Assembly: GCA_028280955.1 (NCBI GenBank) | Contig: JANQKU010000139.1 | Location: 1-56,491 of the forward strand | From: Opitutaceae bacterium | Lineage (GTDB): Bacteria > Verrucomicrobiota > Verrucomicrobiia > Opitutales > Opitutaceae | DNA length: 56,491 bases | Direction of reading: 5' to 3' | Shown: one piece after another, positions 7,863 through 53,969 of the stretch | How the letters are laid out: every line of letters starts with the position of its first letter | Position numbering within the stretch: position 1 is the stretch's first letter | The notes under the pieces: generated by a model | Told to the model about the DNA's origin: nothing | Seen by the model: only the letters and a program-made list of their open reading frames with translations | Database searches by the model: none | Program-made: the position numbers and the translations under genes

Positions 7863-7866
7863 GGAT

Positions 7867-8598: not shown

Positions 8599-8634
8599 AT
8601 CAATTTGCTAAAAATCAATAAAACCAAAATTTTT

Positions 8635-9546: not shown

Positions 9547-9858
9547 AAGTGAAAGATATCCCAAATTCTATTCGCAACTTAGACTTTCTTCTCAAACTAG
9601 GAATAACCGAAACCTGAAACCACATAAGGAGCTTTTATTTTCAATAACATCGATAATGTAATCCATATCTACCTCAAAATTACTTCATAGCATGTCAACC
9701 TTCGTATATTTTTTTAAAGGCATTTCATGAGTCTCAATTTATTATGAGCTTATTTTATCAAATCCCCGAATAGAGCAATCATGTATAAACAATTTAAAAA
9801 CAATTTACATTTCTTGAACATATACAACTAAATTTTTGATTATAGTCACCTTCAATAA

Positions 9859-11549: not shown

Positions 11550-11550
11550 A

Positions 11551-12459: not shown

Positions 12460-12464
12460 TAATC

Positions 12465-14345: not shown

Positions 14346-14410
14346 TATTATTAAAAAAACATTAGCATTAATCTTCTACAATTAGTATCCTTACACTAAC
14401 ACATTTAGCA

Positions 14411-16281: not shown

Positions 16282-17442
16282 ATGTCACACAAGAGTGATA
16301 AGCTACTTATTTTTTCTCAGCGTTTTCCCCCTTCTGTAGGAGGAACTCCAACTGTCATGGGAAATCTGATCGATTCTCTCATGGATCAAAATTTGACAGT
16401 CTTATCACTGGCGGAAATCGGTGAAAAATATGCCAACCAAGTGGAATTTGAACATTACCGCCTCAGACCAAATAATAAAATAATAAGGAAATTAGATCCG
16501 ATTGGATTGAGTATCATACCAAGAGTAATTGGGAAGGCAAAATTAGTTCACAAAAAGCATAATAGCAGTGCAGTATTGTCAGTATTTCCCGGAACGCCCT
16601 ACATGATTGCTAGTTATTTATTTTCGATAAAGCATGACATCCCGCTTTTTCCCTATTTTTTAGATACGTGGCCTGAAGCAAGATGGCGAAGAATTGAACG
16701 CGCAATCTCCAAATACTACGAAAGTAAAGTTATCGAGAGAGCACAAAAAGTATACGTGCTCACGCCCGCTTTGAGAGATCATTTTCTGGAAAAATATCCT
16801 AAATGTCGTAATAAACTAAAAATAATTCCCCATTCTGTTCGTTACCCGTTCGATCTCCCACCCCCTCAATCAAGATGGAATCATAACGGAACACATATTG
16901 TGTACACAGGGCAAATTTATCGAGCAACATTTGACCCTATAAAGCTTCTCCTCGAAAGCTTCCACCATATCGAAGAGCTAAATCCGAAACTTACAATATC
17001 ATCTCCCGAAACTGAGAAAACGCTAAAATCCTATGGACTTTGGAATGGTGAACGATTGACCGTTGTGAATCTTGAACATTCAAGCGACGTTGCAGGGTTA
17101 CAAGCTTCAGCTGACATCCTGTTCAACCCAGTTTCTTTTGACTTTGAAAACGATAAACAAACTCAAACACTATACCCAACAAAAACTTTTGAATATCTTA
17201 AGGCGAGAAAACCTATGTTAGTCTGCGGCCCAGGAACTACATCATTCGTGAAACAGGCTAAACTAGAAAAATTTGCATACGTTGTTGATAAAAAAGATGC
17301 TCAATTGCTCGCCCAAACGATAAAACTTATAGTCGAACAAAAACTCACGTCTGAAATGTCAAACACCTATCTTGATAAACTTTCTCAACACAGCACCGAG
17401 AATATTTCACATAAAATTCTCTCATCAATGCAAAAAATCTAA
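16282..17442 (+). CDS. GT-B fold glycosyltransferase (GT4-like)
   Basis: 'FSQRFPPSVGGTPTVM' N-terminus and a C-terminal 'YPTKTFEYLKARKPMLV' GT-B motif. Confidence 0.6.
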   Translation: MSHKSDKLLIFSQRFPPSVGGTPTVMGNLIDSLMDQNLTVLSLAEIGEKYANQVEFEHYRLRPNNKIIRKLDPIGLSIIPRVIGKAKLVHKKHNSSAVLSVFPGTPYMIASYLFSIKHDIPLFPYFLDTWPEARWRRIERAISKYYESKVIERAQKVYVLTPALRDHFLEKYPKCRNKLKIIPHSVRYPFDLPPPQSRWNHNGTHIVYTGQIYRATFDPIKLLLESFHHIEELNPKLTISSPETEKTLKSYGLWNGERLTVVNLEHSSDVAGLQASADILFNPVSFDFENDKQTQTLYPTKTFEYLKARKPMLVCGPGTTSFVKQAKLEKFAYVVDKKDAQLLAQTIKLIVEQKLTSEMSNTYLDKLSQHSTENISHKILSSMQKI

Positions 17443-17462
17443 ACTAGAAAATTTGGACAGCT

Positions 17463-18302
17463 ATGAGCGTGCAAAACTATTTCGAAAAAACCTTTCAAGA
17501 TGGCAACCTGAAAAGCCTGATTGATAGGTGCGACAATTATCCCCTCGCTGCTACTTTCCTCAAATATTTACCGGAAGGACACGTTTTAGAGGCGGGATCA
17601 GGTGACGGAAGGTGGGTAGGTTGGCTAATCTCAAAAGGTTGGAGAGCCACAGGTTTGGATTGGAGTGAAAAGTTGTGTAAAGAAGCAGAAAAATATATCC
17701 CGGACGGCCAATTTGCCTCTGGAGACATGCGCAAAATGCCTTTTGATGATAATAGCTTTTCTTCCCTTATTGCACTCGGTTCAATTGAACACGTAGTAGA
17801 AGGTCCGGTCCAAATCTTAAAGGAGTTCCGCAGAATATTAAAAACCGACGGTACAGCAATAATTACGGTTCCAGATCGCGCATCAGTTCGAAAACTAATT
17901 AGGATCATCAACTATCCTTTTCATAGATTAAGAACTTCTCTAATTCTACGTAAAATATTAGGCAAAAACACAAATGGTAAGTCCTATTCAAAAGCATACT
18001 CTACAACAGTAAAAAAATGGTCGGCAGACATCAATTATGCTCAAAACGGTTGGTTTTTTTATCAATACAATTTTACTCGCACACAAATGTTGGAACTGTT
18101 GAAGACATCATCATTTCATTTAGTCAAAGATTTCAATTTTCTTCCTGATGAAGGATTGATACAAACTTTTGGAAGACTGGCGGGTCACTATAGTGAAAAA
18201 AATGAACCTATATTATCGATATTTGGGAAAATTCTTAAAATGCTACTTCCCGACTCTTCTATAGGGCATATGCGCTGCTACATCGTAACAAATAAAAAAT
18301 GA
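17463..18302 (+). CDS. Class I SAM-dependent methyltransferase
   Basis: 'VLEAGSGDGRW' motif I, 'ASGDMRKMPFDDNSF' and 'LKTDGTAIITVP'. Confidence 0.8.
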   Translation: MSVQNYFEKTFQDGNLKSLIDRCDNYPLAATFLKYLPEGHVLEAGSGDGRWVGWLISKGWRATGLDWSEKLCKEAEKYIPDGQFASGDMRKMPFDDNSFSSLIALGSIEHVVEGPVQILKEFRRILKTDGTAIITVPDRASVRKLIRIINYPFHRLRTSLILRKILGKNTNGKSYSKAYSTTVKKWSADINYAQNGWFFYQYNFTRTQMLELLKTSSFHLVKDFNFLPDEGLIQTFGRLAGHYSEKNEPILSIFGKILKMLLPDSSIGHMRCYIVTNKK

Positions 18303-19444
18303 TAAATAGACTACTTTTAGTCTGCGACTACAATTTCAGAGGAGAAAGTCTTGTCTCAAATTTTTTCCTGCAATTATCTGAACAATTGAGAGGTAAAAAA
18401 GTCGAGATATCATTTATTCTTCCAATTTCACCCTCCTCATTTTATGTAGAAAAGTTTAAAGCACTAGGAGTCAAACTGATTATTGTTGAAGGGTGGCGAA
18501 GTAAACCTGCAGATGCACACTCTCGAAAATCAATTTTCACAATCAGTTTTGCTGTTTTAAAACAGATGAGGAAGTATTCAATTGGAACGATTGCTTTTCA
18601 TTTTTCAAGTCCTTTGCTCCCTGTTGTCACCGGAATCATTTCACAAATCACATTCGCGAAAATTCCATTCACTGTTTTCCACCAGCATAACGAAGTAAAA
18701 GATTCGAAAACCTCAATACCAATTCCTTTCTTACCTAAAACCGCTAGATTTAAACTGGGATGGACTTCTCACTATGTAGACAAAATTGCCATGGTATACA
18801 AAGAAGGTGTTAATCGACTTTTAAAAAAAGGGGTACCAAAAGGTAAAACGATGTATATACACAACGGATTAAAACCTCCTTCGAAAGAACCAAAGCGTCT
18901 ACATGAGAATGAAACAACCACATTTCTTTACGCAGGAAGACTGATACCTGGAAAGGGAGTTGACATAGTTTTAAATGCATTTGCCCTGCTGAAGAAAAAG
19001 GGCTATAAATTCATGTTTTTGATCGCAGGTGTCGGAACTGAAAGAAAAAGACTCGAAACACTCACCTCAAAGCTCAAGCTTGAAAAACACACCATTTTTC
19101 TAGGATATAAAAGAGACATCCTAGATTTATATCTAAAGACAGACGCATTGCTTTTACCCTCTCAAACAGAGGCCTTGCCAAGCGTAATTATAGAAGCCGC
19201 ATTTCAAAAAACCCCCAGCATAGCTTCAAAAGTTGGAGGAATACCTGAGCTGATAATTGAAAACGAGACCGGTATATTGGTTCACTCAGAAAATGCTGAG
19301 GTTTGGGCGGATAAATTGGAGGAAGTTCTTTCTGGAGAAACTAATCTGAAAAATTTGGGATCGGCGTCGTACAATTACGTCTCAGAAAACTTCACGTTGG
19401 ATAATATGGTAGACTCTTACACGAAACTGTATCTGGAAAGATAG
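18299..19444 (+). CDS. Glycosyltransferase family 4
   Basis: 'FLYAGRLIPGKGVD', 'LLLPSQTEALPSVIIEAAFQKTPSIASKVGGIPELI..ETGILV'. Confidence 0.85.
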   Translation: MINRLLLVCDYNFRGESLVSNFFLQLSEQLRGKKVEISFILPISPSSFYVEKFKALGVKLIIVEGWRSKPADAHSRKSIFTISFAVLKQMRKYSIGTIAFHFSSPLLPVVTGIISQITFAKIPFTVFHQHNEVKDSKTSIPIPFLPKTARFKLGWTSHYVDKIAMVYKEGVNRLLKKGVPKGKTMYIHNGLKPPSKEPKRLHENETTTFLYAGRLIPGKGVDIVLNAFALLKKKGYKFMFLIAGVGTERKRLETLTSKLKLEKHTIFLGYKRDILDLYLKTDALLLPSQTEALPSVIIEAAFQKTPSIASKVGGIPELIIENETGILVHSENAEVWADKLEEVLSGETNLKNLGSASYNYVSENFTLDNMVDSYTKLYLER

Positions 19445-19455
19445 CTTTGAGCACC

Positions 19456-20604
19456 ATGACAGGAACTCCTCATCGAAAAGACAAAATTTGCCACCTTTTG
19501 CTATCATTGAATCAGGGGGGAATGGAAAACGGAGTTGTCAATGTATCCAATACAATTGCTAAAAACTCCGATCAATTCGAACAGATCATCATATGTATTC
19601 GAAGTGAAGGATGCTTGGCAAAAAGACTTTCAAGTTCTATTCGAGTCTACTGTTTGAATCAGAAAAAGGGGATCAGTTTAGCAGCCCTTCTTAAACTAAA
19701 AACAATACTCAAAAATGAACGAGTTAGAATCTTATACACCCATAACCACGCCCCATTGATTTGGGGTGGTATAGTTCGATTGCTACTACCTGGAATGAAA
19801 TGGATTCATGGGGAACATGGTTTTGCTTTAAAAGAGGTCATTTACCGTTGGGTTTCTCGCTGGTTGATTAAGAAAGCTAATTTGGTTACAGTGGTGTCTG
19901 AAAATCTTCTGGCAGAAACAAGGCATGCATACAGTCTTCCCAGCTTAGTTATATCAGTGATCCCCAATGGAGTTAATACAACTTTTTATAAACCCATATC
20001 TTCTGAAAAAAAGAAAGCTTTCAAGAACTTACGAGGCATTTCTCCAGACTCATTTTTGCTACTTTGTTCAGGCCGCTTAGAAAGGCGCAAAAACCAACAA
20101 TTCGCAATTAGAGTTATCCATGAACTCAACAACAGAAGACCCGGCAGTTGTCATTTATTATTGGCGGGCACAGGTGACGACAAAGGAAGTTTAATCAGAT
20201 TAACTCAGGAGCTAAAAATTGAGAAAAATGTTCACTTCTTAGGTTATCGTGATGATATGCCTATGATTTATGGATCATCCGACATATTGTTACTTCCATC
20301 TCTTTGGGGAGAAGGAATGGCAAATGCAATTCTGGAAGCAAACGCCTGCGGAATTCCCGTCATCGCCTCCCCACTGGAAGGAAATCTATATGTAGTAGAG
20401 GAAGGGATGAATGGCTTTACAAGGGAAGTAAGCGGAACATGCACCTCTCTTCATTGGGCACAATTGATCCATCGTTTAATCAACAATCCTCGAGAACTTT
20501 CTTTGCTAAAAGCGCGATCTCGTAAAAAAATGCAAAAGGAATTTAGCCTCACTCAAATGGTCGAACGTTACTCCGAGATGTATAATAATCTAGCGTTAGG
20601 ATAA
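19456..20604 (+). CDS. Glycosyltransferase family 4
   Basis: 'ICHLLLSLNQGGMENGV', 'LLLPSLWGEGMANAILEANACGIPVIAS..EGN.YVV.EG.NGF'. ATG at 19456; a TTG at 19447 is also possible. Confidence 0.85.
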   Translation: MTGTPHRKDKICHLLLSLNQGGMENGVVNVSNTIAKNSDQFEQIIICIRSEGCLAKRLSSSIRVYCLNQKKGISLAALLKLKTILKNERVRILYTHNHAPLIWGGIVRLLLPGMKWIHGEHGFALKEVIYRWVSRWLIKKANLVTVVSENLLAETRHAYSLPSLVISVIPNGVNTTFYKPISSEKKKAFKNLRGISPDSFLLLCSGRLERRKNQQFAIRVIHELNNRRPGSCHLLLAGTGDDKGSLIRLTQELKIEKNVHFLGYRDDMPMIYGSSDILLLPSLWGEGMANAILEANACGIPVIASPLEGNLYVVEEGMNGFTREVSGTCTSLHWAQLIHRLINNPRELSLLKARSRKKMQKEFSLTQMVERYSEMYNNLALG

Positions 20605-20608
20605 AAGG

Positions 20609-21913
20609 ATGGGTTTGTTCATAACTATAACCTACATAATATTTTTGTTTATACGTCCACAGGATTGGTTGCCACTTCTTAAGTCCTTTCATCCTATGGA
20701 TATCATCATGCTGGGCGGAATCTATTTACTATTTACTGAGCTTTTTAAAACAGGTAGTAAAAAACGACTGACAGACTGCCCTCAATTGTGGCTATTGTTA
20801 GGTCTTTGGTCCATTTTAATACTTACTTTTCCTTCAGAAGCTCCTTCAACCTTTATGATGATGCTCCAACGTATTTTGCCATTTACAATGGTGGTTTTGT
20901 TCGTGAGGTCTCAAAAAGATTATGAACTACTATTAAACTGCCTACTAATTGGTCTAACCTTCTTATGCATTCACTGCACAAAACAACACTTCACTGGCAC
21001 GGGATTTGGCGGAGTTGATCCTCTTATGCGCCAGGCTCCTGACGGCTCAACAGTTAGGCAAGTAAGAGCTTTCGGCATCTTCAGTGGTCCAAATGAAATG
21101 GGAACGGTCTGTGGCATCGGCATGGTCATTACCCTTTCATTTATCCGCATATACAAAAATAATCTACTTAGGTTGATCACATACTCAGCGCTATTCCTTT
21201 TGATGATGAATGTGCTACTTTGGACTGACAGTCGGCAAGCGATACTCATCATGGCTGGAGGTATAGGAGGAGCATTTTTTTCATGGAAACGCAAGTGGAT
21301 CACACTTGCTGTTTTGCCAATTTTACTTATCGCGGGCATGGGGGCTTCAGTGCGCTGGGGAGGGGATATCGGATCAGACAGAAGTGTGGAAAAGCGTGTG
21401 ATGGCCATAACAGACGGTCTGCATATCTTCAAATCTAATCCAATTCAAGGGGTTGGTATAGGCAGATCTTATGATCGTGTCGGACAAAAAATGCCACTTC
21501 ATAATTCGTTTTTAATGCTACTTGTTGAGGCAGGAATAATTGGATTTACTGCTGCCATCGGAGCAATCTTCATCTCTTTTCTACAAAATATCTATTTACT
21601 ACGCTGCACCCCAGATTCTAAAGAAGATCAAAAGATGATCACGTTCGCAAAAACTAACATCGGCATCCTTGTAGCTCTATGCATAGGACTCTATTTCCAG
21701 AACCGACCTTACCACAACGATAATTATGTCTACGTGGGTGTGCTCACTGCATTTGCCATGAATGTAAAAGAACTATACTCGATCAAAAACCCAGGCTATT
21801 TCTCTCCATCATGGCTTCTAAAAAGAGGTGCAATTTTCATAGGATCTAGTGCAATTTTTGTGATACTAATGTTACACTTCACGAGTAAACTCTACTGGAT
21901 TAATTTCCGCTAA
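20609..21913 (+). CDS. O-antigen ligase/polymerase-family membrane protein (second copy)
   Basis: Polytopic membrane protein with a loop 'LHNSFLMLLVEAGIIG' typical of the Wzy_C/O-antigen ligase domain. Confidence 0.7.
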   Translation: MGLFITITYIIFLFIRPQDWLPLLKSFHPMDIIMLGGIYLLFTELFKTGSKKRLTDCPQLWLLLGLWSILILTFPSEAPSTFMMMLQRILPFTMVVLFVRSQKDYELLLNCLLIGLTFLCIHCTKQHFTGTGFGGVDPLMRQAPDGSTVRQVRAFGIFSGPNEMGTVCGIGMVITLSFIRIYKNNLLRLITYSALFLLMMNVLLWTDSRQAILIMAGGIGGAFFSWKRKWITLAVLPILLIAGMGASVRWGGDIGSDRSVEKRVMAITDGLHIFKSNPIQGVGIGRSYDRVGQKMPLHNSFLMLLVEAGIIGFTAAIGAIFISFLQNIYLLRCTPDSKEDQKMITFAKTNIGILVALCIGLYFQNRPYHNDNYVYVGVLTAFAMNVKELYSIKNPGYFSPSWLLKRGAIFIGSSAIFVILMLHFTSKLYWINFR

Positions 21914-21917
21914 AAGC

Positions 21918-22523
21918 ATGCCGACCAAATCTAACTACAACAGGAGGCTCAAATTCCTCACTGAAGAAGTTAAACGCGGAGAAGATGTTCTGGACGTGGG
22001 ATTCGGGGGTGCACACATCATGACTTTGTTGAGCAAAAATGGAGCTAATTGCACAGGAATTGAGATCGACAGAGAATTGGTTAACAAAGCATCAAATTTA
22101 GGTTTCAACGTGAAACTAGCAGGGGCGGAAAAACTACCCTTCGACGACGAATCATTTGACACTATAATATGTGCTGTTGCTCTTCCTTACACGGACGAAG
22201 AAATCGCGATTAAAGAGTGGCAAAGAGTATTAAAATCTACTGGAAAAGTCATCCTTACTACTCATGGCCTTGGCTTTGGATTACAAAGACTCTTATCCTT
22301 TGAAAAGCAATCCTATTATGGCTTTAGAATGCTCTTGAATACGCTCATCTATTCCTACAGCGGCAAACGTTTAAAAGGACATTGGGGAAATACACTCTGC
22401 CAGAGCAGATCATTCCTGAAAAAGCGCTATAAACGTATGAAATTAGAGCTAATTGAAGAACTCGTTGATGGAACATTTTGGGGTCTCCCAATTTACATAG
22501 GCCACAAACTTATTAAGCTTTAG
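21918..22523 (+). CDS. Class I SAM-dependent methyltransferase
   Basis: 'VLDVGFGGAH' motif I, 'AGAEKLPFDDESFD', 'LKSTGKVILT'. Confidence 0.8.
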   Translation: MPTKSNYNRRLKFLTEEVKRGEDVLDVGFGGAHIMTLLSKNGANCTGIEIDRELVNKASNLGFNVKLAGAEKLPFDDESFDTIICAVALPYTDEEIAIKEWQRVLKSTGKVILTTHGLGFGLQRLLSFEKQSYYGFRMLLNTLIYSYSGKRLKGHWGNTLCQSRSFLKKRYKRMKLELIEELVDGTFWGLPIYIGHKLIKL

Positions 22524-22565
22524 AAAAACCTGAGCAAACAAATCTATCCTTTTATTTCGGTAATA

Positions 22566-23624
22566 ATGCCGATCCGCAATGAGGCTGCTTTTATTGAACG
22601 CAGCTTTGGAGCAATATTGGAGCAAGACTATCCATCCGAGCGCTATGAAGTTCTCATTATTGATGGGATGAGTGACGATAAAACTCGCGACCTCATTCAT
22701 AGTCTATCAGAGTCGACTAGCGTATCAGTGAGGGTAATCGACAACCCTCAGAAAATTGTTCCACCCGCGATGAATCTTGGAATTAGGCATGCAAGAGGTG
22801 AAATTATCATTCGCATGGACGGGCACACTGTAGCTGCACTAGATTACCTTACAAAGTGCATTGAGGTTATGGAAAATACCAATGCTGATAATGTCGGTGG
22901 GCGGATGGATTGCGTATCAGATTCTTTGTTGGGGGATTCTATAGGAGTTGCGACTAGCCATCCATTTGGAATTGGTGGGGCTAAATTCCATTATGCTAAA
23001 GAAGCTCAAGAGGTAGATACTGTTTATTTGGGTTGCTGGAGGAAGGAGACCTTTCAACGGTATGGCCTATTCGATGAGTATTTTCTCAGAACTCAGGATT
23101 CCGAGTTCAATTACAGAACACGGATGTTAGGAGGGAAAATATGGTTAGATCCTAAAATTCAATCAAAATACCATAATCGTGCTTCAATACCGAAACTGTG
23201 GAAACAATATTTGCAATATGGGTATTGGAAGACTCGTTTGATGTATAAACTAGGTGGGAAGTTGAAATTAAGACATTTGGCAGCACCCTTTTTAGTTTCT
23301 GGGCTTCTCATTTCAACGATATTATCATTTATAGGAATAGCGATATACCTAAATCAACCAGAATTAGCATACATTGCTTACGCGTTTTTTTTCACATCTA
23401 TGATAACCCCAGTATCCTATGTCCTGGCACTATCAGTAGCAACATTATCATCGATTAGAAAATCGAATTTTAAAAAAGGTGTTCTGACTTTTTTCATTTT
23501 CCCAATCATACATTTTAGTTGGGGTTCCGGTTTTTTATGGGGACTACTAAATAGACCTGATTCTAGAAAATTTTCAGCTATTCCAGAGCTTAGCAATCAG
23601 CGACCTGAGAACACCAAGTTATAA
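22566..23624 (+). CDS. Glycosyltransferase family 2 with C-terminal TM segments (start codon uncertain)
   Basis: 'MPIRNEAAFIERS....L.QDYP....EVLIIDGMSDD' and 'RMDGH'. The conserved first strand 'PFISVI' is encoded upstream of this first ATG (see findings). Confidence 0.8.
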   Translation: MPIRNEAAFIERSFGAILEQDYPSERYEVLIIDGMSDDKTRDLIHSLSESTSVSVRVIDNPQKIVPPAMNLGIRHARGEIIIRMDGHTVAALDYLTKCIEVMENTNADNVGGRMDCVSDSLLGDSIGVATSHPFGIGGAKFHYAKEAQEVDTVYLGCWRKETFQRYGLFDEYFLRTQDSEFNYRTRMLGGKIWLDPKIQSKYHNRASIPKLWKQYLQYGYWKTRLMYKLGGKLKLRHLAAPFLVSGLLISTILSFIGIAIYLNQPELAYIAYAFFFTSMITPVSYVLALSVATLSSIRKSNFKKGVLTFFIFPIIHFSWGSGFLWGLLNRPDSRKFSAIPELSNQRPENTKL

Positions 23625-23753
23625 GGTATTTTGTTTCATGTAGAATACGTTCCCTAAAAATGCATACCCCTTTGTATCACCATAAAAGTTTGTCACTTTA
23701 GTTCAGTTCATAACGCATTTGATACTAGAATACTTTGGAAACAATGTATTGGT

Positions 23754-24812
23754 TTGTCAAAAGCAGGATATGAGGTCATTCTCATCGCTAAAATTAAAGA
23801 AGAGAATACTTGTGATCTTGTGCGGATCATACCATTCCCAGAATTCAACAACAAACTGACAAGGTTCATCTTCGCGCCAATATTGATTGGATGGAAAGCA
23901 TACAAAGTGAAGGCTGATATATATCAGTTTCATGACCCCGAGCTGATTCTTATTGGCGTATTATTGAAACTGTTGACACGAAAACCCGTGATATTTGACA
24001 TCCATGAGGATAATGTGACCGTAATCGAAAATCGTAATTATGTTACTGCGCTATTCAAACCATGCCTGAAGAAAATCTACCTATTGTTTGAGCTCATATC
24101 TAGAAAATACTTAGTCGTACTAATAGCAGAAAAATATTACAAAGAAAGGATTCCTGAAGGGGTTGAAATACTGAACTACCCTATTTTGTTAGAAACACAA
24201 AAGAAGGCATTTATTGAAAAGAGTCCTATTTCTTCACAAGCGAACAATTGGCTCCTATATACAGGCTCGACACGGAAGGATAGAGGCGCACTCCATCATG
24301 CAAACATAACTAGTTATTTACCAGATATCGGGGTTTATAGTGCCGGGAAGTGTAGCGCTGATTTATATGAAAAAATGAAAAATGTTTCAGATCCTGAAAG
24401 ACTCATCGTTGAAGGAAATAATAGCATAAATATTTCGCGAGAAAGGCTCGATTATCTGACTAGTAACTACAAATGGCTAGCTGGCTTAGCACTATTCCCG
24501 AAAACAAAACACTTTGAGAAGAAAGAACTTACAAAATTTTTTGAGTATATGCGAGATGGTATTCCCATTTTATGCTCAAACATGCCTGCATGGGAAGAGT
24601 TCGTCACCCGAAATAATGTTGGAATTGCAGTAGATCCCGAAGACGAGGAACAAATTGTAAGAGCAATTCAGTGGTTAACCGGTCATCCTGACCGGAGGCG
24701 TGTAATGGGGCAGAATGGCATCAGATTGATCAAAAAAAAATATAACTGGCAGAATGAGGAAAACAAGCTCATATCGCTTTATGAAAAACTTGATCGGCAG
24801 ACATTAGGCTAA
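23754..24812 (+). CDS. Glycosyltransferase family 4, 5' end apparently disrupted
   Basis: 'FEYMRDGIPILCSNMPAWEEFV..NNVGIAVDPED' GT4 C-domain. The conserved N-terminus 'KVCHFSSVHNAFDTRILWKQC' lies in-frame upstream of the TTG and has no canonical start. Confidence 0.65.
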   Translation: MSKAGYEVILIAKIKEENTCDLVRIIPFPEFNNKLTRFIFAPILIGWKAYKVKADIYQFHDPELILIGVLLKLLTRKPVIFDIHEDNVTVIENRNYVTALFKPCLKKIYLLFELISRKYLVVLIAEKYYKERIPEGVEILNYPILLETQKKAFIEKSPISSQANNWLLYTGSTRKDRGALHHANITSYLPDIGVYSAGKCSADLYEKMKNVSDPERLIVEGNNSINISRERLDYLTSNYKWLAGLALFPKTKHFEKKELTKFFEYMRDGIPILCSNMPAWEEFVTRNNVGIAVDPEDEEQIVRAIQWLTGHPDRRRVMGQNGIRLIKKKYNWQNEENKLISLYEKLDRQTLG

Positions 24813-24828
24813 GCAATTTACCTATTCA

Positions 24829-26022
24829 ATGCGTATATTCCTAATTAGTACTCTATATCCCAATTCAAAACAGCCGACTCGGGCTTTATACAATAAGAGG
24901 CATTTTGAAGCGCTCAAAACAATTGGGCATGAAGTGGAGGTTATTGCTCCGGTCCCATGGTATCCCGGAAAAACGAATCTGCCACCTGTGTGCGAATTTG
25001 TCGGAAAAATCTTGGTCCATCATCCAAGATTTTTTTATACGCCGGGTGTCATGATTGATCAGCACTGGAGATCCTATCGTTTTTTCGTCAAAAATATACT
25101 CGAAAGAGTGATAAAAGATGCAAGATGCAAGATGGAGGATGGGAAAATGAAAACTTCAAACTTCCAAAATAATGTCCACATCATCCTTGGATTTGTCTAC
25201 CCAGATGCTGTTGCAATGGCTTCCATTTGTAGAAATCTGGGTTTACATTACTCCGTTTTGGTCTTGGGCAGTGATTTTCGTGTCAGAACAAAACAGAAGA
25301 GATTCGCCAATAAAGTGATGATGTGCCTACAAGAGGCTCCAAGCATTTTTTGCCCTGGAAAAGCACTGAAAAACGACATGTCTGCAGCAGGAATTAATGA
25401 AGAAAAAATTTTTGCGTTTAACAATGGAACCAACAAAAAAGTGTTCTTTTATAATGAAGAAAAAATCCAAACAACACCCTACTCTCACCAAACCATATTG
25501 TTCGTAGGGAATTTGGTTGATATAAAAGCTCCGGAACGTCTGCTAAGGGCATTCGCAAAGTTTCAAACTAATAACGCTCCTACCGCCAAAGTTTTGATCG
25601 TTGGATTCGGACCACTCAAAGAACGAATGATAAGGCTCTGTGAAAAGCTGTCGATACATGACCTAGTTGAATTTCTTGGACGTCAACCACCTAACGAAAT
25701 AGCCAGAAGAATGAAACATGCTGATACTCTGTGCTTGTGTAGCAAATCAGAAGGAATGCCCAATGTCGTTATTGAGGCTCTTTCATGTGGATGTCCCGTC
25801 GTTGCCACTGCCGTAGGTGAAATACCGCATCTCATCGATGAAGGAGTCAATGGATATACTGTGCCAGTTGAAGGGCAGACGGAGGACCAAATCATTTCAT
25901 GCCTAAGCGTTAAGCTACATGAATGCACCAAAAACAACTGGAATAGGAAACAGATTGCGGAAGCGATGAATTCCTACTCTTGGGAGAATGCAGCCCAAGA
26001 AGTAACCAAAAGATTAATGTAA
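24829..26022 (+). CDS. Glycosyltransferase family 4
   Basis: 'ILFVGNLVDIKAPERLL', 'LCLCSKSEGMPNVVIEALSCGCPVVATAVGEIPHLIDEGVNGY'. Confidence 0.85.
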   Translation: MRIFLISTLYPNSKQPTRALYNKRHFEALKTIGHEVEVIAPVPWYPGKTNLPPVCEFVGKILVHHPRFFYTPGVMIDQHWRSYRFFVKNILERVIKDARCKMEDGKMKTSNFQNNVHIILGFVYPDAVAMASICRNLGLHYSVLVLGSDFRVRTKQKRFANKVMMCLQEAPSIFCPGKALKNDMSAAGINEEKIFAFNNGTNKKVFFYNEEKIQTTPYSHQTILFVGNLVDIKAPERLLRAFAKFQTNNAPTAKVLIVGFGPLKERMIRLCEKLSIHDLVEFLGRQPPNEIARRMKHADTLCLCSKSEGMPNVVIEALSCGCPVVATAVGEIPHLIDEGVNGYTVPVEGQTEDQIISCLSVKLHECTKNNWNRKQIAEAMNSYSWENAAQEVTKRLM

Positions 26023-49927: not shown

Positions 49928-50168
49928 AAGTTCATTTATTAATGAACAAGCGGGTTTTCGCAGTTTCGATATTTTTATATTTCATCAAATCAAGACTCTA
50001 CTGACAGCAAGATCATAATCAAATATCCTGTTGATAATCAATATCTTACAACTTTTATTTGCATTAGAATAATACTTCCTTAAAATCCAACTTAATGCCT
50101 CTAAACACCTTTCAAATTCTCCAATATACCCGCTAAAAAGTGGGTTATAACTACTGTTGTAAACAAAA

Positions 50169-50582
50169 ATGAAAAAAATGAAGATAGAAGTGTCTTTGAA
50201 GCAGGCTTGCACTTCCCTTTTCAAAAATCAGCCGAACCTCTATTCCTTTACCAGTCTCACTGGCCAAACCGAATGGAATTTGACGCATCATCTTTCCAAT
50301 GAGATCAGAACGTTTTTTGAAGATTACGATTGTGATCTCGATATATCAAAAAGGAATTTAGGAAATAAACGCCCAGATATCGTAATTCACAAACGAGACT
50401 CGAATACCGACAATCTGTTGGTGGTCGAAGTTAAAAGAAATGGAAAAAAATCAAAAATAAATGATGACATCAAAAAGATTAAAATAGACTGGTTTAATTC
50501 GGACCTTTCTTATCATTTTGGGGCGACGATTAATTTGAAAGATGATATGGATTTTGAAGTGAAAGTCTTTGAAAATAAATAG
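50169..50582 (+). CDS. Cassette 1: small PD-(D/E)xK nuclease-fold protein (hypothetical)
   Basis: 'KRPDIVIHKR(7)LLVVEVKR' fits the D...(D/E)xK restriction-endonuclease-like motif. 137 aa, followed directly by an attC. Confidence 0.5.
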   Translation: MKKMKIEVSLKQACTSLFKNQPNLYSFTSLTGQTEWNLTHHLSNEIRTFFEDYDCDLDISKRNLGNKRPDIVIHKRDSNTDNLLVVEVKRNGKKSKINDDIKKIKIDWFNSDLSYHFGATINLKDDMDFEVKVFENK

Positions 50583-50649
50583 TTGTAACAAGACGGCGGA
50601 GAGGAACTGCCAGACCTCCGGCCTCTTGTCCCTCACCTTAACGTTCGCA
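50583..50649 (+). repeat. attC site 1
   Basis: TTGTAAC-AAGACGGCGGAGAGG...CCCTCACCTTAAC-GTTCGCA. Arms pair imperfectly with bulged bases. Shares AACAAGACGG and GTCCCTCACCTT(A/G)ACGTT with attC 7. Confidence 0.7.
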
Positions 50650-50657
50650 AAAAATAA

Positions 50658-51350
50658 ATGCCTCAACGAATCACAGGTAAGCTCCTCTCTCAAAAGTGGA
50701 AAGTTGATGTAAAGCATGCCCTCTACAGTCATGATGGAACATGGTACCATCGCCTTAAAGATTTTCCTGGAGCATTGTTTGATTCATCTGGTTTCGTGAT
50801 ATTCAACACAAAGGATGAGTTTGAAGGGTGTCCAAGTTTGAGACTGAAGAAAGATTGCGGTTGCAGGTTTGGCATTTCGACCATCGACGGATATGTCAGA
50901 GTTCGAAACTTCGAAGCGTCTGATGTCAAAGATGATCAAGAAATTGAAAGAAAAGAGACTTTCGTTTCGAGGATTATTAGAGATACGAACCTCAGCAGAG
51001 AATTGAAATTAGAGTATGAAGATCAGTGTCAGATCTGTGGTGTCACAGTCAAATTATTCGACGGAAGTTATTCCGAGGCTCATCATATCATTCCTTTAGG
51101 ATCACCACATAATGGAACAGATAACAAAGATAATTTGATAGTGGTTTGTCCCACGTGTCACGTAAAGATGGATTATTTTTCTATCCCTCTTTCATTGATG
51201 GATTTGAAAGTTCTAGGTCATACCATTTCAGAAGAATCTGTAGAATATCACAACAATCAATACGCGAACAAGATAGGCGAGAGGGATTCTGAACCGCTCC
51301 GCGTGTCATCAATCCCTCCCTTTGAGGTTGTCTCCAAAAAAAGAATCTAA
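50658..51350 (+). CDS. Cassette 2: HNH endonuclease with uncharacterised ~130-aa N-terminal domain (McrA-like architecture)
   Basis: 'CQICGVTV(10)EAHHIIPLGSPHNGTDNKDNLIVVCPTCH' HNH/His-Me finger. The 3' end of the ORF runs through attC 2. Confidence 0.85.
   Translation: MPQRITGKLLSQKWKVDVKHALYSHDGTWYHRLKDFPGALFDSSGFVIFNTKDEFEGCPSLRLKKDCGCRFGISTIDGYVRVRNFEASDVKDDQEIERKETFVSRIIRDTNLSRELKLEYEDQCQICGVTVKLFDGSYSEAHHIIPLGSPHNGTDNKDNLIVVCPTCHVKMDYFSIPLSLMDLKVLGHTISEESVEYHNNQYANKIGERDSEPLRVSSIPPFEVVSKKRI
51263..51333 (+). repeat. attC site 2
   Basis: CGCGAAC-AAGATAGGCGAGAGGGATT...AATCCCTCCCTTTGAG-GTTGTCT. R'' GCGAAC is the reverse complement of GTTCGC at the start of this cassette (50643-50648). 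Confidence 0.7.
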
Positions 51351-51394: not shown

Positions 51395-51859
51395 ATGAAA
51401 AAAACAATCATCCTTCTAGCATATATTCTCCTGGCCAGCATACTAAATGCTGGTAGTGGCAGTGCAACTGCTCCTTATTGGCAAAAACTCGAAACGTTTC
51501 AATTAACGACAATCTCGCTTACAAACATAAGTAGTGAAAATGTTACTGTCTTTATCATGCTAAAAGACATAGATGGTATCGCCTACGATGAAAGCTCTGA
51601 AAATGGAACAAACATTGAAATTGGGTCAAATTTTTCGGGTGATCCTCTGTCTAATAACGGAGCCTTGCTTGAAGCTGGAAAAACGGGAACATTAACGATT
51701 AAGGATACCGGTAATCTGAAAACCGGCTACAGCACAATTGAGTGGGTTTCAAACGGAAGTAACATTAGAGCCCTTGTGGGAGTAACGACTCATGTTGTTA
51801 AAGGAGACGCCTCACATGACTTCAATCACATGTTGATAAACAACGGATTGCCTTTCTAA
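51395..51859 (+). CDS. Cassette 3: secreted hypothetical protein
   Basis: Signal peptide 'MKKTIILLAYILLASILNAGSGSA' and a beta-rich mature part. No family recognised. Confidence 0.6.
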   Translation: MKKTIILLAYILLASILNAGSGSATAPYWQKLETFQLTTISLTNISSENVTVFIMLKDIDGIAYDESSENGTNIEIGSNFSGDPLSNNGALLEAGKTGTLTIKDTGNLKTGYSTIEWVSNGSNIRALVGVTTHVVKGDASHDFNHMLINNGLPF

Positions 51860-51868
51860 AAAAAGACC

Positions 51869-51934
51869 CGACAACAAGGTGCTTGAGGTAATCCTGCTCA
51901 CTTGTTCGCGGATTACCTCAGCTAGACATTAGTG
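51869..51934 (+). repeat. attC site 3 (core G replaced by A)
   Basis: CGACAAC-AAGGTGCTTGAGGTAATCC...GGATTACCTCAGCTAGAC-ATTAGTG. Perfect 10-bp inner stem. R'' GACAAC complements GTTGTC at 51327-51332. R' reads ATT instead of GTT. Confidence 0.65.
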
Positions 51935-51966
51935 TGAAAGATTTCTCAAATTCGTCATAAATATTC

Positions 51967-52058
51967 GGTCAAAGCAGTACTGACCACGTTGTCAAAGGGG
52001 TTTTGAACGAACGGTCAAAGCCCATTTGACTGAGTGGTCAAAGAGCATTTGAAAAAGA
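51967..52058 (+). repeat. Four tandem 23-bp direct repeats (iteron-like) inside ORF-less cassette 4
   Basis: Units start at 51967, 51990, 52013 and 52036: GGTCAAAGCAGTACTGACCACGT / TGTCAAAGGGGTTTTGAACGAAC / GGTCAAAGCCCATTTGACTGAGT / GGTCAAAGAGCATTTGAAAAAGA. Each has an internal GTCAAA..TTTGA(C/A) dyad. Confidence 0.75.
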
Positions 52059-52175
52059 GTAAAAATTGAAAAGAAGCCACTCCTCTGTTAAAAAGAATTG
52101 ATCCCGTACCACGCTAAAAGTTTATTGGTTCTGCTCCACGAATCACATCAACCTCATCCCCAATTTTACAAAAAG

Positions 52176-52234
52176 CACTAACAAGACGGTGGGTTAAACT
52201 CTGCTTTGCTCCGTTCACCACATTGACGTTGGCA
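52176..52234 (+). repeat. attC site 4
   Basis: CACTAAC-AAGACGGTGGGTTAAAC...GTTCACCACATTGAC-GTTGGCA. R'' CACTAAC is the exact reverse complement of (G)TTAGTG at the start of cassette 4. Confidence 0.65.
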
Positions 52235-52285
52235 GAAATAATAGAAGACTTGAGAAATCTTTGGAATTCCACGATATTTAAAAAT

Positions 52286-52492
52286 ATGAGCATCACTGAA
52301 ATAAAAAAACTCCCCGTCGGCGAACGGATTGAGGTGATGGAGCAGATCTGGGATTCTTTGAGAGATGAAGATCAGGAAATATCGTCACCTGCCTGGCATG
52401 GCGAAGTATTGGAGGAAAGAAGAAAAAAAATAGAGGAAGGAAAAGCTACCTTCATCACCCTCGATCAGCTAAAATCTAGATTTCGCAGATGA
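52286..52492 (+). CDS. Cassette 5: addiction-module antitoxin (TIGR02574-like)
   Basis: 'MSITEIKKLPVGERIEVMEQIWDSL...SPAWHGEVLEERRKKIEEGKATFITLDQL' pattern. 4-nt overlap with the toxin ORF. Confidence 0.7.
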   Translation: MSITEIKKLPVGERIEVMEQIWDSLRDEDQEISSPAWHGEVLEERRKKIEEGKATFITLDQLKSRFRR

Positions 52493-52794
52493 AAATAAAA
52501 GAAGTCATTATCCTCGATGACGCCTCCGAAGATCTTGAAGCAGGCAAGCTTTTCTATGATGAAAGAGAATTTGGTATTGGTGATTACTTCATCGATTGTC
52601 TTTTATCAGATTTAACCTCCCTCAAACTCTACGCAGGAATTCATAATTTCCACTTCGGTTACCAACGGATGCTATCAAAATGATTTCAGTTTGCGATTTA
52701 CTACGACATTGAAGATGAGATTGCCCGAGTCATAGCTATTTTGGATATGCGGATGAATCCTGACAGCATCCGAAAAATCCTCAAACAAAGATAG
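52489..52794 (+). pseudogene. Cassette 5: RelE/ParE-family toxin interrupted by an in-frame TGA (52681-52683)
   Basis: Same-frame continuation after the stop encodes 'FQFAIYYDIEDEIARVIAILDMRMNPDSIRKILKQR*'. The TGA aligns with the conserved Arg in 'RRFPYTIIY' of the paralogue at 53127, consistent with CGA>TGA. Confidence 0.7.
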
Positions 52795-52795
52795 A

Positions 52796-52859
52796 CGCCA
52801 ACAAGTAGGTTAAGTAAATGCCGAGCACGCTTGCCATCTACTCACCTCAGACGTTAGGA
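52796..52859 (+). repeat. attC site 5
   Basis: CGCCAAC-AAGTAGGTTAAGTAAATG...CATCTACTCACCTCAGAC-GTTAGGA. R'' GCCAAC complements GTTGGC at 52228-52233. Confidence 0.7.
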
Positions 52860-52908
52860 AAAAACAAAAATGATTTGAGATAATTTTACGATTCAAGATA
52901 ATCAAACC

Positions 52909-53130
52909 ATGGATGCAGCAATATTAGAAAAGGAAGCTCTTTCACTTCCTGAATCAGCCAGAGCAGTTTTGGCAGATCGACTAATCGAAAGTATATCTCC
53001 TATTCCCCCCACAATTTTAGACTCATGGATAGAAGAATCAGAAAGTAGATTAAAGGCATTTGAACGAGGAGAAATTGAAGCCGTTGACGGAGAGGAAGCT
53101 TTGAGCCTATTAAAGAATAAATATAAATGA
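52909..53130 (+). CDS. Cassette 6: addiction-module antitoxin (TIGR02574-like)
   Basis: 'EALSLPESARAVLADRLIESI.......LDSWIEESESRLKAFERGEIEAVDGEEAL'. 4-nt overlap with the toxin gene. Confidence 0.75.
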   Translation: MDAAILEKEALSLPESARAVLADRLIESISPIPPTILDSWIEESESRLKAFERGEIEAVDGEEALSLLKNKYK

Positions 53131-53423
53131 ATTTCAGATTTCTTACTCCAGCCCTCAGTGAGATATCTGACGCCTCAGAGTATTATGAAAATGAAGTATC
53201 GGGACTAGGTATTGATTTCATTGACGAAGTCGATTCAACGATACACCGAATTTTGAAATATCCTCGTGCTTGGAGTAAGATCTCGGATGAATTTCGTCAC
53301 TGCAATTTAAGAAGATTTCCATATACGATCATTTACCATCAACCTCAAGAAAACGAAGTCCTCATAGTTTCGGTATTCCATCAAAGCAGAAAACCGAACT
53401 CATGGAAAAACAACCTAAAATAA
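53127..53423 (+). CDS. Cassette 6: RelE/ParE-family toxin
   Basis: 'A..EI.DA..YYE.......DF..EV...I..I..YP.AW.......R...LRRFPYTIIY......VLIVSVFHQSRKP'. Confidence 0.8.
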   Translation: MNFRFLTPALSEISDASEYYENEVSGLGIDFIDEVDSTIHRILKYPRAWSKISDEFRHCNLRRFPYTIIYHQPQENEVLIVSVFHQSRKPNSWKNNLK

Positions 53424-53471
53424 TACTAACAGGAATTCTGAACCGCTCCGCTCCTCACCCTGGCGTTGGGT
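53424..53471 (+). repeat. attC site 6 (short, 48 bp)
   Basis: TACTAAC-AGGAATTCTGAACCGCTCCGCTCCTCACCCTGGC-GTTGGGT. Shares the 18-mer ATTCTGAACCGCTCCGC with attC 2. Arms pair poorly, so it may be degenerate. Confidence 0.5.
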
Positions 53472-53485
53472 AGATATAATCGAAA

Positions 53486-53893
53486 ATGTACTCATTCATA
53501 GCAGATTTCATTCTCCTGCTTCATTTTGCATTCATTGTTTTTGTTGTTGGTGGAGAGATCTGCGTGATTGTCGGATTCTTTAGGAATTGGTCCTGGGTAC
53601 GTAATTTCAAATTTCGCATCTTCCATGTTTGCGCCATTGGATTTGTAGTTGTCCAAAGTTGGGTCAATCAGGTATGTCCGCTCACAATCTGGGAGAACGC
53701 ACTTCGAAATGCTGCGGGTGAAGAAAAGTATTCTGGGACTTTCATCGGACATTGGGTTGGGCAAATAGTTTTCTATGACGTACCTCAGTGGATTTTTGTA
53801 ACTGCATACTCGATGTTTGGAGCATTAGTTATTCTTACTTGGATTTGGGTAAGACCTAGACGAATCAATAGGAAAACTTCTGAGGATAATTGA
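53486..53893 (+). CDS. Cassette 7: DUF2784-like membrane protein
   Basis: 'DFILLLHFAFIVFVVGGE', 'VCPLTIWENALRNAAGE', four TM segments. Confidence 0.7.
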   Translation: MYSFIADFILLLHFAFIVFVVGGEICVIVGFFRNWSWVRNFKFRIFHVCAIGFVVVQSWVNQVCPLTIWENALRNAAGEEKYSGTFIGHWVGQIVFYDVPQWIFVTAYSMFGALVILTWIWVRPRRINRKTSEDN

Positions 53894-53899
53894 TTCATG

Positions 53900-53969
53900 G
53901 CCCAACAAGACGGTCGAGGTGAGGAACCGTAAAGGCTACGCCCTCTGGTCCCTCACCTTGACGTTGTAT
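53900..53969 (+). repeat. attC site 7
   Basis: GCCCAAC-AAGACGGTCGAGGTGAGG...CCTCACCTTGAC-GTTGTAT. TCGAGGTGAGG pairs with CCTCACCTTGA (one G.T) with bulged bases nearer the R boxes. R'' CCCAAC complements GTTGGG at 53465-53470. Confidence 0.75.

Follow-up and report, generated by a model that had tools for sequence, protein, structure and literature searches.

Modification-dependent nucleases are barriers to phage and reagents for the mapping of DNA modification, and with every newly found reader domain a further specificity has become accessible. EcoKMcrA, a solitary enzyme of this kind, resides on the mobile element e14. TagI is an NTP-independent dimer joined via its HNH domains (PMC6212794). 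PD-lambda-3 of Escherichia coli ECOR28, described in the supplement of Vassallo 2022 and not in its main text, comprises three genes ("Nuclease, HEPN"), acts by abortive infection, and requires its partner genes (PMC9519451 and supplement). That integron cassettes confer phage resistance has been established experimentally, in keeping with the preliminary description of the present locus, which had called such cassettes a reservoir of compact defense genes; homologues of these BRiCs occur both inside and outside integrons (bioRxiv 10.1101/2024.07.02.601719).

We analyzed a window of 56,491 nt (the whole stretch of DNA examined), in which ORF1 and ORF2 occupy the first two units of an array of attC-like sites (Table 1). 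Both are, on sequence evidence, real genes and not chance ORFs; homologues number 23 for ORF1 (E values down to 5e-45) and 82 for ORF2 (down to 1e-85). We consider both genes to be defense candidates and lean, by a little, toward reading them as two single-gene cassettes heading an integrase-less attC array, each encoding a DNA endonuclease that acts autonomously against phage or MGEs: ORF2 a TagI-like enzyme, ORF1 a minimal PD-(D/E)xK effector.

Table 1. Coordinates of the array, the two genes, and the attC-like sites within the window
Feature	Position	Strand	Description
attC-like array	49.9-54.0 kb		Low GC; seven attC-like sites; ORF1 and ORF2 cassettes are the first two units
Array upstream edge	49928..50168	.	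AT-rich, noncoding; from histidine-kinase stop codon to ORF1
ORF1	50169..50582	+	137 aa (134 aa if the start is M4); predicted stand-alone PD-(D/E)xK nuclease
attC-like site, cassette 1	50583..50649	+	R'' TTGTAAC 50583-50589; R' GTTCGCA 50643-50649
ORF2	50658..51350	+	230 aa; N-domain, linker, HNH
ORF2 N-domain	50658..50912	+	Residues 1-85; predicted, uncharacterized, sensor type
McrA/TagI-type HNH module	50949..51272	+	ORF2 residues 98-205
attC-like site, cassette 2	51263..51333	+	R'' CGCGAAC 51263-51269; R' GTTGTCT 51327-51333; overlaps ORF2 3' end
Rest of array	51395..53969	+	Context; cassettes beyond the first two
Further attC-like sites	51870-51935, 52176-52234, 52796-52859, 53424-53471, 53900-53969		

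The GC content is 0.37 to 0.41 in the island and ~0.50 in its flanks, and a histidine-kinase gene adjoins the array upstream. On the plus strand, AACAAG occurs 7 times in the 4.5-kb island versus 31 times in the whole 56-kb window. One attC-like site follows each of ORF1 and ORF2, with the layout of an AAC inverse core, an imperfect hairpin, and then GTT; sites were called manually, by direct sequence reading together with folding. The bottom strand of the cassette 1 site forms a bulged hairpin (−9.7 kcal/mol), folding of the cassette 2 site gives −12.7 kcal/mol, and the bulged fold is found in 4 to 5 of the seven sites. The cassette 1 site is ~77% identical to the site at 53918-53965, and a 21-nt stretch of the cassette 2 site is 95% identical to part of that at 53424-53471. 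A strict regular-expression search of the window for attC did not outperform chance, the cores being degenerate, and no attC or attI hairpin folds in the upstream edge of the array. Beyond ORF2 lie a cassette for a 154-aa secreted-type protein, one whose plus strand has no ORF of 40 aa or more, two Unstab_antitox/ParE-type toxin-antitoxin cassettes, and one DUF2784 cassette.

We found no intI gene: Pfam analysis of the ORFs at 32-49 kb revealed no recombinase, and tblastn with IntI1 and a fetched tyrosine integrase gave a best E value of 0.12 anywhere in the window (the same IntI1 probe detected IntI at 46 to 48% identity in other loci). A 79-aa minus-strand ORF (49985-50224), faintly similar by eye to the IntI N terminus, was considered as an integrase remnant and rejected, its Pfam matches being noise. 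Because the window contains no integrase gene, we class the array as CALIN-like and not as a complete integron, with at least two attC sites flanking promoterless ORFs in a single orientation. Both genes had at first been described as integron cassettes; with the attC-like site after each ORF, that cassette description stands, corrected in that no integrase gene was found in the window. Promoter and terminator scans yielded nothing above chance, no integrase-associated Pc promoter was found at the array, and Rfam returned nothing in the island; both genes may be expressed.

ORF2 carries the motifs CQICG...EAHHIIPLG...NLIVVCPTCH downstream of HALYSHDGTWYHRLKDFPGALFDSSGFVIFNT. Pfam recognizes this region as HNH (7.6e-10), bearing out the canonical HNH finger reported at the outset for this 230-aa protein; the first ~95 residues have no Pfam match. 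The module comprises an RIIRDT helix, zinc ligands C124/C127/C164/C167, and a C-terminal helix with YHN, and H143, N159, H168, and D172, like the zinc ligands, are intact and conserved in the family. Its closest solved relatives, by sequence as well as by fold, are the HNH domains of TagI and EcoKMcrA, as expected from the McrA-like architecture originally suggested for ORF2: searches of PDB sequences matched TagI (6ghs) at an E value of 1.5e-14 over residues 97-187 and EcoKMcrA (6ghc) at 1.4e-7, and Foldseek with the ORF2 model placed the same two enzymes first (5.5e-7 and 1.4e-4, respectively). Residues 98-205 are 39% identical to an annotated YDG/SRA-HNH protein (E value of 7e-26), and D172 aligns with the TagI Asp that is described as the binder of the catalytic metal (PMC6212794). 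With PADLOC, which like Foldseek had been recommended in the preliminary description, the top match was the type IV methyl-directed REase model. The best reading of ORF2, judged from these similarities, is a TagI-like type IV enzyme whose reader domain has been swapped for an uncharacterized one.

The last ~28 codons of ORF2 (residues ~203-230) lie within its own attC and the 21 nt that open the next cassette, the stop codon lying 21 nt past the G|TT crossover point; homologues mostly stop near query residue 205-215, and the ORF2 model is of low confidence there. Relatives of ORF2 are solitary genes next to a resolvase or integrase, and the nearest genome relatives, from Chthoniobacter flavus and a Verrucomicrobiaceae MAG, likewise have flanking attC-like sites. 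The ORF2-type HNH module, with other N-domains, is present in complete integrons of Vibrio and Pseudomonas. Methyltransferase is absent from the recurrent families listed among 144 neighbors of 18 full-length ORF2 relatives, and Pfam detected no methyltransferase domain in eight proteins of the 4-kb array; with one gene per cassette, neither ORF has a cognate methyltransferase in its own cassette, as had been noted before.

The N-domain of ORF2 is modeled with high confidence (pLDDT of 90 to 97) over ~85 aa and is followed by a low-confidence linker. It had been described as an unplaceable domain of ~130 aa; the length needs revision, and the domain is indeed without a match in Pfam, NCBIfam, PHROGs, or PDB sequences. 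Tectonin and antibody-framework matches of its profile to PDB sequences were discarded as spurious, repeat-level similarity, and both Foldseek runs with whole ORF2 were dominated by HNH. Among 22 family N-domains there was no Pfam match to SRA or PUA, and hhalign of the N-domain against the N-terminal, SRA-bearing portion of an annotated SRA-HNH protein gave a probability of 0.7%. Its invariant residues are W14, H20, Y23, G27, W29, F36-P37-G38, D42, G45, and Y79.

The N-domain is found in 807 proteins and 757 clusters at 50% identity. Most often (46 of 80 metagenome loci) it makes up a protein of 83 to 100 aa by itself; at these loci we found no conserved neighbor or partner gene and, checking for frameshifted fusions, no TagI-type HNH in another frame. 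Because this form is the commonest and has no conserved neighbor, the role of the domain is perhaps not tied to nucleases. Among the best 150 matches, the N-domain is fused to HNH or HNH_2 (24 and 21 proteins) and NOV_C (7 proteins), and in single cases to GmrSD, NucS_C, DUF1016_N, SduA_C, T5orf172/MUG113, and an HSDR_N-like domain; PDB sequence searches with two large fusion proteins without Pfam domains returned nothing. In a 1004-aa protein, the N-domain (residues 2-86) precedes a true McrB GTPase (E value of 1e-94 to 6hz4/6ut6). McrB proteins carry a modified-base reader at that N-terminal position. Joined to several nuclease types and to a McrB GTPase, the N-domain behaves in sequence comparisons as a swappable sensor module, and by analogy of domain architecture we infer that it may read DNA modification.

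Alternatively, the N-domain could sense a sequence, a structure, or a protein and no modified base, the nuclease being otherwise controlled, for example, as an abortive-infection effector or toxin. The lack of similarity to the SRA part or to any Pfam or PDB entry, the dominance of stand-alone forms without a conserved partner, and the fusion to the Shedu nuclease SduA_C would agree with this (the N-terminal domains of Shedu are not known to read modifications). We nevertheless find it rather doubtful, since the fusions to a true McrB GTPase and to GmrSD are hallmarks of modification-dependent systems, the nuclease module is common to SRA-HNH enzymes, and the cassette contains no immunity or antitoxin gene.

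In the reading that we prefer, ORF2 would dimerize via its HNH module; the 85-aa N-domain would sense some property of the DNA that enters, the likeliest being a base modification absent from the host genome; and the tethered, zinc-stabilized beta-beta-alpha-Me HNH site would nick or cut close by, without methyltransferase or NTP. We offer a broader proposal more tentatively, as one that is possible and short of probable: the N-domain may represent an undescribed family of nucleic-acid modification readers, widespread as small stand-alone proteins and recruited repeatedly for the targeting of six or more types of effector (TagI-type HNH, NOV_C, GmrSD, Shedu, GIY-YIG-like, and McrB), which would place ORF2 among the most compact type IV enzymes, aimed at modifications beyond those read by SRA, EVE, and YTH domains and moving as an integron cassette.

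As for ORF1, it contains RPDIVIHKRDSNTDNLLVVEVKR; the PD-(D/E)xK motif first recognized in this 137-aa protein was confirmed. Nothing in ORF1 rose above the Pfam threshold, and ORF1 belongs to a small family without a Pfam model. Candidate catalytic residues are E35 or E45, D70, E87, and K89, all invariant or nearly so in the family; E35, P69-D70, and E87-x-K89 are invariant and map onto the canonical fold in the model (pLDDT of 87, pTM of 0.84), whose elements run in the order alpha-alpha-beta-beta-beta-alpha-beta-beta. By sequence and predicted structure, then, ORF1 is a member of the PD-(D/E)xK superfamily, with the E...PD...(D/E)xK motif on an alpha-beta-beta-beta-alpha-beta core. The informative Foldseek matches were all to PD-(D/E)xK nucleases and all weak (best E value of 0.013). 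The PADLOC model PD-Lambda-3_A matched 21 of the 23 family members (best E value of 1.4e-9), its match to ORF1 spanning the catalytic core only (residues 68-123, ~55 residues).

Defense or restriction-modification (R-M) genes adjoin ORF1 relatives in 9 of 11 independent loci, and the relatives have no conserved partner gene. The neighbors include SIR2 and HerA with a D12 methyltransferase, HsdR, AbiEi/AbiEii, a C5 methyltransferase with a GHKL ATPase, Hachiman HamA/HamB, an AbiJ-type protein, a type IIG enzyme, a retron RT with a CHAT protein, and a TOPRIM-UvrD pair. Since a methyltransferase or R-M gene lies near three relatives, ORF1 might be an orphan type II enzyme, that is, the endonuclease of a classical R-M pair whose methyltransferase is elsewhere or lost (in the latter case, the cassette would be silent or decaying). 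One relative begins 7 bp after a D12-class adenine methyltransferase gene, a second lies 56 bp downstream of a gene for a type IIG MmeI/Eco57I-type enzyme, and a third is ~2 kb downstream of a C5 methyltransferase gene; in addition, models of type IIG enzymes match a tail at the C terminus of the longer family members. We judge this origin unlikely, given that three different classes are represented among the nearby methyltransferases, that at most loci there is none, that ORF1 matches no PADLOC REase_II model, and that its catalytic residues are intact in a cassette without a partner. The initial preference for type IV-like or abortive-infection logic over classical R-M is upheld by the ORF2 relatives, with their lack of a recurrent methyltransferase, and tempered by these three ORF1 relatives. 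We favor ORF1 as a minimal, oligomeric PD-(D/E)xK DNA endonuclease acting as a stand-alone defense effector, which could spare host DNA in either of two ways: by modification dependence or by activation upon infection.

One or both genes might instead serve the mobile element itself, for example, as an HNH active in homing or nicking, as a resolvase or repair nuclease of VRR-NUC-like type, or as an addiction gene stabilizing the array. Phage families do give generic HNH matches to ORF2, the VRR_NUC matches of five ORF1 family members fall below threshold, and toxin-antitoxin cassettes, which are typical stabilizers, are present in the same array. However, the phage HNH matches of ORF2 (PHROGs, none better than 3.7e-8) and its matches to BFVD viral structures (best 1.8e-3) are much weaker than that to TagI, neither the ORF1 family nor relatives of the ORF2 N-domain were found in the 2.9 million viral contigs of IMG/VR, and ORF1 relatives reside in defense islands, not in replication or recombination modules. 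Across PHROGs, BFVD, and IMG/VR, ORF2 does not have the profile of a phage homing HNH, whose closest relatives would be phage encoded or associated with introns or inteins. We consider a role in serving the element quite improbable; the placement in nondefense families that the preliminary description had allowed for did not materialize, the homing-HNH matches being weak and generic, and each of the checks suggested there that we ran came out in its favor.

Integrons were known before to carry defense cassettes; what is new here, as a lead, is the reader-type domain of ORF2. Present in hundreds of protein clusters and on many effectors, yet outside Pfam, NCBIfam, PHROGs, and PDB sequences, it is a concrete candidate, and a cheap one to test because ORF2 has only ~210 functional residues. 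The locus would extend the recently demonstrated phage-defense cassettes to nonclinical, probably verrucomicrobial chromosomes, with a single nuclease module that travels in cassettes and has exchangeable sensors, and ORF1 adds a small, unannotated nuclease family tied to defense islands.

Compared with PD-lambda-3, ORF1 and most of its relatives match the small nuclease component over the PD...ExK core; however, the ORF1 cassette holds no second gene, no partner is conserved among the relatives, only ~55 residues are matched, and the HEPN and third components are absent, as neither ORF2, ORF3, nor the DUF2784 protein matches a PADLOC PD-lambda-3 model. Like BRiCs and CALINs, the array consists of compact genes, each with an attC-like site, in one direction and in the company of toxin-antitoxin cassettes, and the genes have homologues in and out of integrons; it differs in having no integrase in the window, in a host that is probably verrucomicrobial and not a clinical proteobacterium, and in that phage resistance is here a prediction. 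The readers of McrB proteins (DUF3578 in EcoKMcrB, YTH in Thermococcus gammatolerans) have no Pfam sequence similarity to the N-domain, which in ORF2 is attached to HNH and not to an McrBC motor, yet in a true McrB GTPase homologue it is the N-domain that sits at their N-terminal position. EcoKMcrA (PDB 6GHC) shares the McrA-type HNH and the lifestyle of a solitary modification-dependent enzyme on a mobile element, but the alignment is limited to ORF2 residues 106-182, and the N-terminal 5mC-reading domain of EcoKMcrA has no counterpart in ORF2. As for the SRA-HNH enzymes TagI/ScoA3IV (PDB 6GHS), the ORF2 sensor is an unrelated 85-aa domain, not SRA or PUA, and ORF2 is shorter by ~80 to 190 residues; nevertheless, homology of the HNH extends to the helix before it, the zinc ligands, the catalytic His/Asn/His/Asp residues, and the C-terminal helix, and in both an N-terminal sensor, a flexible linker, and HNH make up one polypeptide that has neither methyltransferase nor NTPase.

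ORF1, a stand-alone PD-(D/E)xK nuclease gene, and ORF2, which joins an N-terminal domain (N-domain) to an HNH module, lie on the positive strand exactly where the preliminary description placed them, with the motifs it quoted. Homology marks both as genuine genes: database searches gave 82 homologues for ORF2 (best E 1e-85) and 23 for ORF1 (best E 5e-45). The pair opens a 4-kb island with a GC content of 0.37-0.41, versus ~0.50 in surrounding DNA, bordered by a histidine-kinase gene on one side and an HlyD-type gene on the other.

Every positive-strand ORF of the island has an attC-like site downstream, in which an AAC inverse core and a GTT core enclose an imperfect inverted repeat; folding gave bulged bottom-strand hairpins for four or five of the seven, and two sites are weak. 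We recognized no attC-like site upstream of ORF1. Pfam identified no integrase among the ORFs of 32-49 kb, and tblastn with IntI1 found no match in the window; the same probe detected IntI elsewhere, in other loci examined (46-48% identity). Because an integrase is absent there, the array is CALIN-like (attC sites without integrase) within the window. ORF2 runs through its own attC, and its stop codon falls 21 nt past the crossover point, inside the next cassette (window 51263-51350). The last ~28 residues of ORF2, unconserved among homologues and poorly modeled, are read-through and therefore depend on the identity of the downstream cassette.

The remaining cassettes encode a secreted-type protein of unplaced family, two Unstab_antitox/ParE toxin-antitoxin pairs, and a DUF2784 protein (Pfam), content typical of chromosomal cassette arrays. 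Searches of Pfam, NCBIfam, PADLOC, and PHROGs gave no match for the cassette 3 protein. Two attC-like sites enclose an interval the size of a cassette that contains three copies of GGTCAAAG and an inverted repeat; it yielded nothing in Rfam and may be a non-coding cassette. In the first toxin-antitoxin cassette an in-frame TGA breaks the toxin; the frame stays open past it for another 36 codons, which encode a C-terminus typical of such toxins.

Features of the window and integron loci carrying related HNH fusions
Feature	Position	Strand	Length	Remarks
Low-GC region	7000-26000			GC 0.34-0.39; co-directional genes; composition differs from rest of window
ORF1	50169-50582	+	137 aa	PD-(D/E)xK motif
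attC-like site	50583-50649			read from sequence
ORF2	50658-51350	+	230 aa	HNH motif
attC-like site	51263-51333			read from sequence
Cassette 3	51395-51859		154 aa	signal-peptide-like N-terminus
attC-like site	51870-51935			read from sequence
Cassette-sized interval	51936-52228			no + strand ORF of at least 40 aa
Inverted repeat	51981-52040		29 nt	within interval
attC-like site	52176-52234			read from sequence
Antitoxin gene, first pair	52223-52492			intact
ParE/RelE-like toxin, first pair	52489-52795			broken
In-frame TGA	52681-52683			within toxin
attC-like site	52796-52859			read from sequence
attC-like site	53424-53471			read from sequence
attC-like site	53900-53969			read from sequence
Vibrio sp. 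M260118 integron	L037 294-2294			TagI-type HNH fusion, first cassette after intI
Pseudomonas sp. NCCP-436 integron	L032 4389-8378			TagI-type HNH fusion, one cassette

The nuclease half of ORF2 most resembles modification-dependent enzymes. Pfam assigns HNH (7.6e-10) and HNH_2, and the best sequence matches among solved structures are TagI (1.5e-14, residues 97-187) and EcoKMcrA (1.4e-7), both modification-dependent. The same two lead the Foldseek search with the AlphaFold model (pLDDT 87.5), which fits the McrA-like architecture proposed earlier, and the top PADLOC match is a type IV methyl-directed REase model. Residues 98-205 share 39% identity (E 7e-26) with the nuclease portion of a Janthinobacterium plasmid protein annotated as YDG/SRA-HNH; SRA-HNH enzymes are already characterized (PMC6212794). 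The family alignment preserves the zinc ligands as well as the catalytic His, Asn, His, and Asp. Phage HNH families (PHROGs) and viral structure models match ORF2 only generically.

The N-domain had been described as ~130 aa long and unplaceable. It stays unplaced by profile searches, but its conserved part spans only residues 1 to ~85 (pLDDT 90-97), and the linker after it is modeled with low confidence. Searches of Pfam, NCBIfam, PHROGs, and PDB sequences gave no match for the domain, and hhalign against the portion of an SRA-HNH protein that includes its SRA domain gave a probability of 0.7%. SRA, EVE, and YTH readers of type IV systems are promiscuous fusion modules, and the N-domain shows the same pattern. 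When 1.84 billion representative proteins were searched with its profile, the N-domain appeared in 757 clusters, at the N- or C-terminal end of proteins 78-1004 aa long. Pfam on the best 150 matches identified as partners HNH (24 proteins), HNH_2 (21), NOV_C (7), and, once each, GmrSD, NucS_C, DUF1016_N, Shedu SduA_C, T5orf172/MUG113, HSDR_N-like, and AAA_5. The AAA_5 fusion (P0197, metagenomic, 1004 aa) is a true McrB: its residues 713-1001 align with the E. coli McrB GTPase (E 1e-94), and the N-domain occupies residues 2-86. Some 620 residues without an assigned domain separate the two. Most often the N-domain makes up a whole protein, 83-100 aa long. Of 80 metagenome loci, 46 have this stand-alone form and 14 a fusion with a TagI-type HNH; no conserved neighbor was found, nor an HNH concealed in a different reading frame. 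This dominance of the stand-alone form calls for caution in viewing the N-domain as a reader.

Full-length ORF2 relatives are spread over Verrucomicrobiota, Abditibacteriota, Acidobacteriota, Bacteroidota, Chloroflexota, Gemmatimonadota, and Cyanobacteria. In a Verrucomicrobiaceae MAG and in Chthoniobacter flavus, which carry the two closest genome relatives, attC-like sites again flank the gene, with clear hairpins in three of four folded; others are solitary genes that adjoin a resolvase, or a Rep gene and tyrosine integrase. The recurrent families listed among 144 ORFs neighboring 18 relatives include no methyltransferase, in line with the earlier remark that the ORF2 cassette lacks a cognate one. 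The HNH module also occurs with a different, winged-helix-like N-domain in cassettes of complete Vibrio and Pseudomonas integrons. We observed directly both the nuclease homology of ORF2 and the modular behavior of its N-domain. The favored mechanism is TagI-like: the enzyme would dimerize via its HNH domains, the N-domain would recognize a feature of foreign DNA, probably a modification, and cleavage would follow nearby without NTP or methyltransferase.

ORF1 matches no Pfam family above threshold; five family members match VRR_NUC below threshold, and single members match other PD-(D/E)xK families. The proposed signature is borne out by invariant residues (E35, H41, K61, R68, P69, D70, H74, E87, and K89) and by a model (pLDDT 87, pTM 0.84) with the canonical core, in which D70 opens the second strand and E87-x-K89 lies in the third. 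Foldseek matches are weak (E 0.013 or worse), yet are PD-(D/E)xK nucleases throughout: SPARDA nuclease, EcoRV, 3IJM, and Cas4.

Neighbors of ORF1 relatives (fetched loci, L-numbers) include a D12 methyltransferase 7 bp upstream, SIR2, and HerA (L006); HsdR (L007-L009); AbiEi/AbiEii (L010); Hachiman HamA/HamB (L094); an AbiJ-type protein (L096); a type IIG enzyme (L097); on Bacillus plasmids, a retron RT and CHAT protein (L098) or helicases and a TOPRIM+UvrD pair (L099); and, on a further contig, a C5 methyltransferase and GHKL ATPase. Two further loci lack defense genes around the relative, one contig is too short to judge, and no relative was found in viral contigs. Longer relatives (P0093-P0100, ~210-219 aa) end in a tail ('QIDxLVYKLYGLTxEEIKIVE') with matches to the C-terminal ends of type IIG restriction-methylase models. 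At L097 a short, probably truncated member lies directly downstream of the type IIG enzyme. The favored reading of ORF1 is an autonomous PD-(D/E)xK DNA endonuclease serving defense.

Defense genes in integron cassettes are established (bioRxiv 10.1101/2024.07.02.601719), which agrees with the view of cassettes as a phage-defense reservoir. Within the literature searched, the ORF2 sensor domain and its distribution are new, although the domain may be named elsewhere; also new is the small, unannotated ORF1 nuclease family tied to defense islands. Promiscuity of SRA, EVE, and YTH readers comparable to that of the N-domain is known from type IV systems (PMC6765204 and PMC7641849). For ORF1, the PADLOC PD-Lambda-3_A model matches at 4.9e-5; the model also matches 21 of 23 relatives, the strongest at 1.4e-9. 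The PD-lambda-3 system comprises three genes, has an entry in PMC9519451 that reads 'Nuclease, HEPN', and works through abortive infection (PMC13190303); its partner genes are absent beside ORF1.
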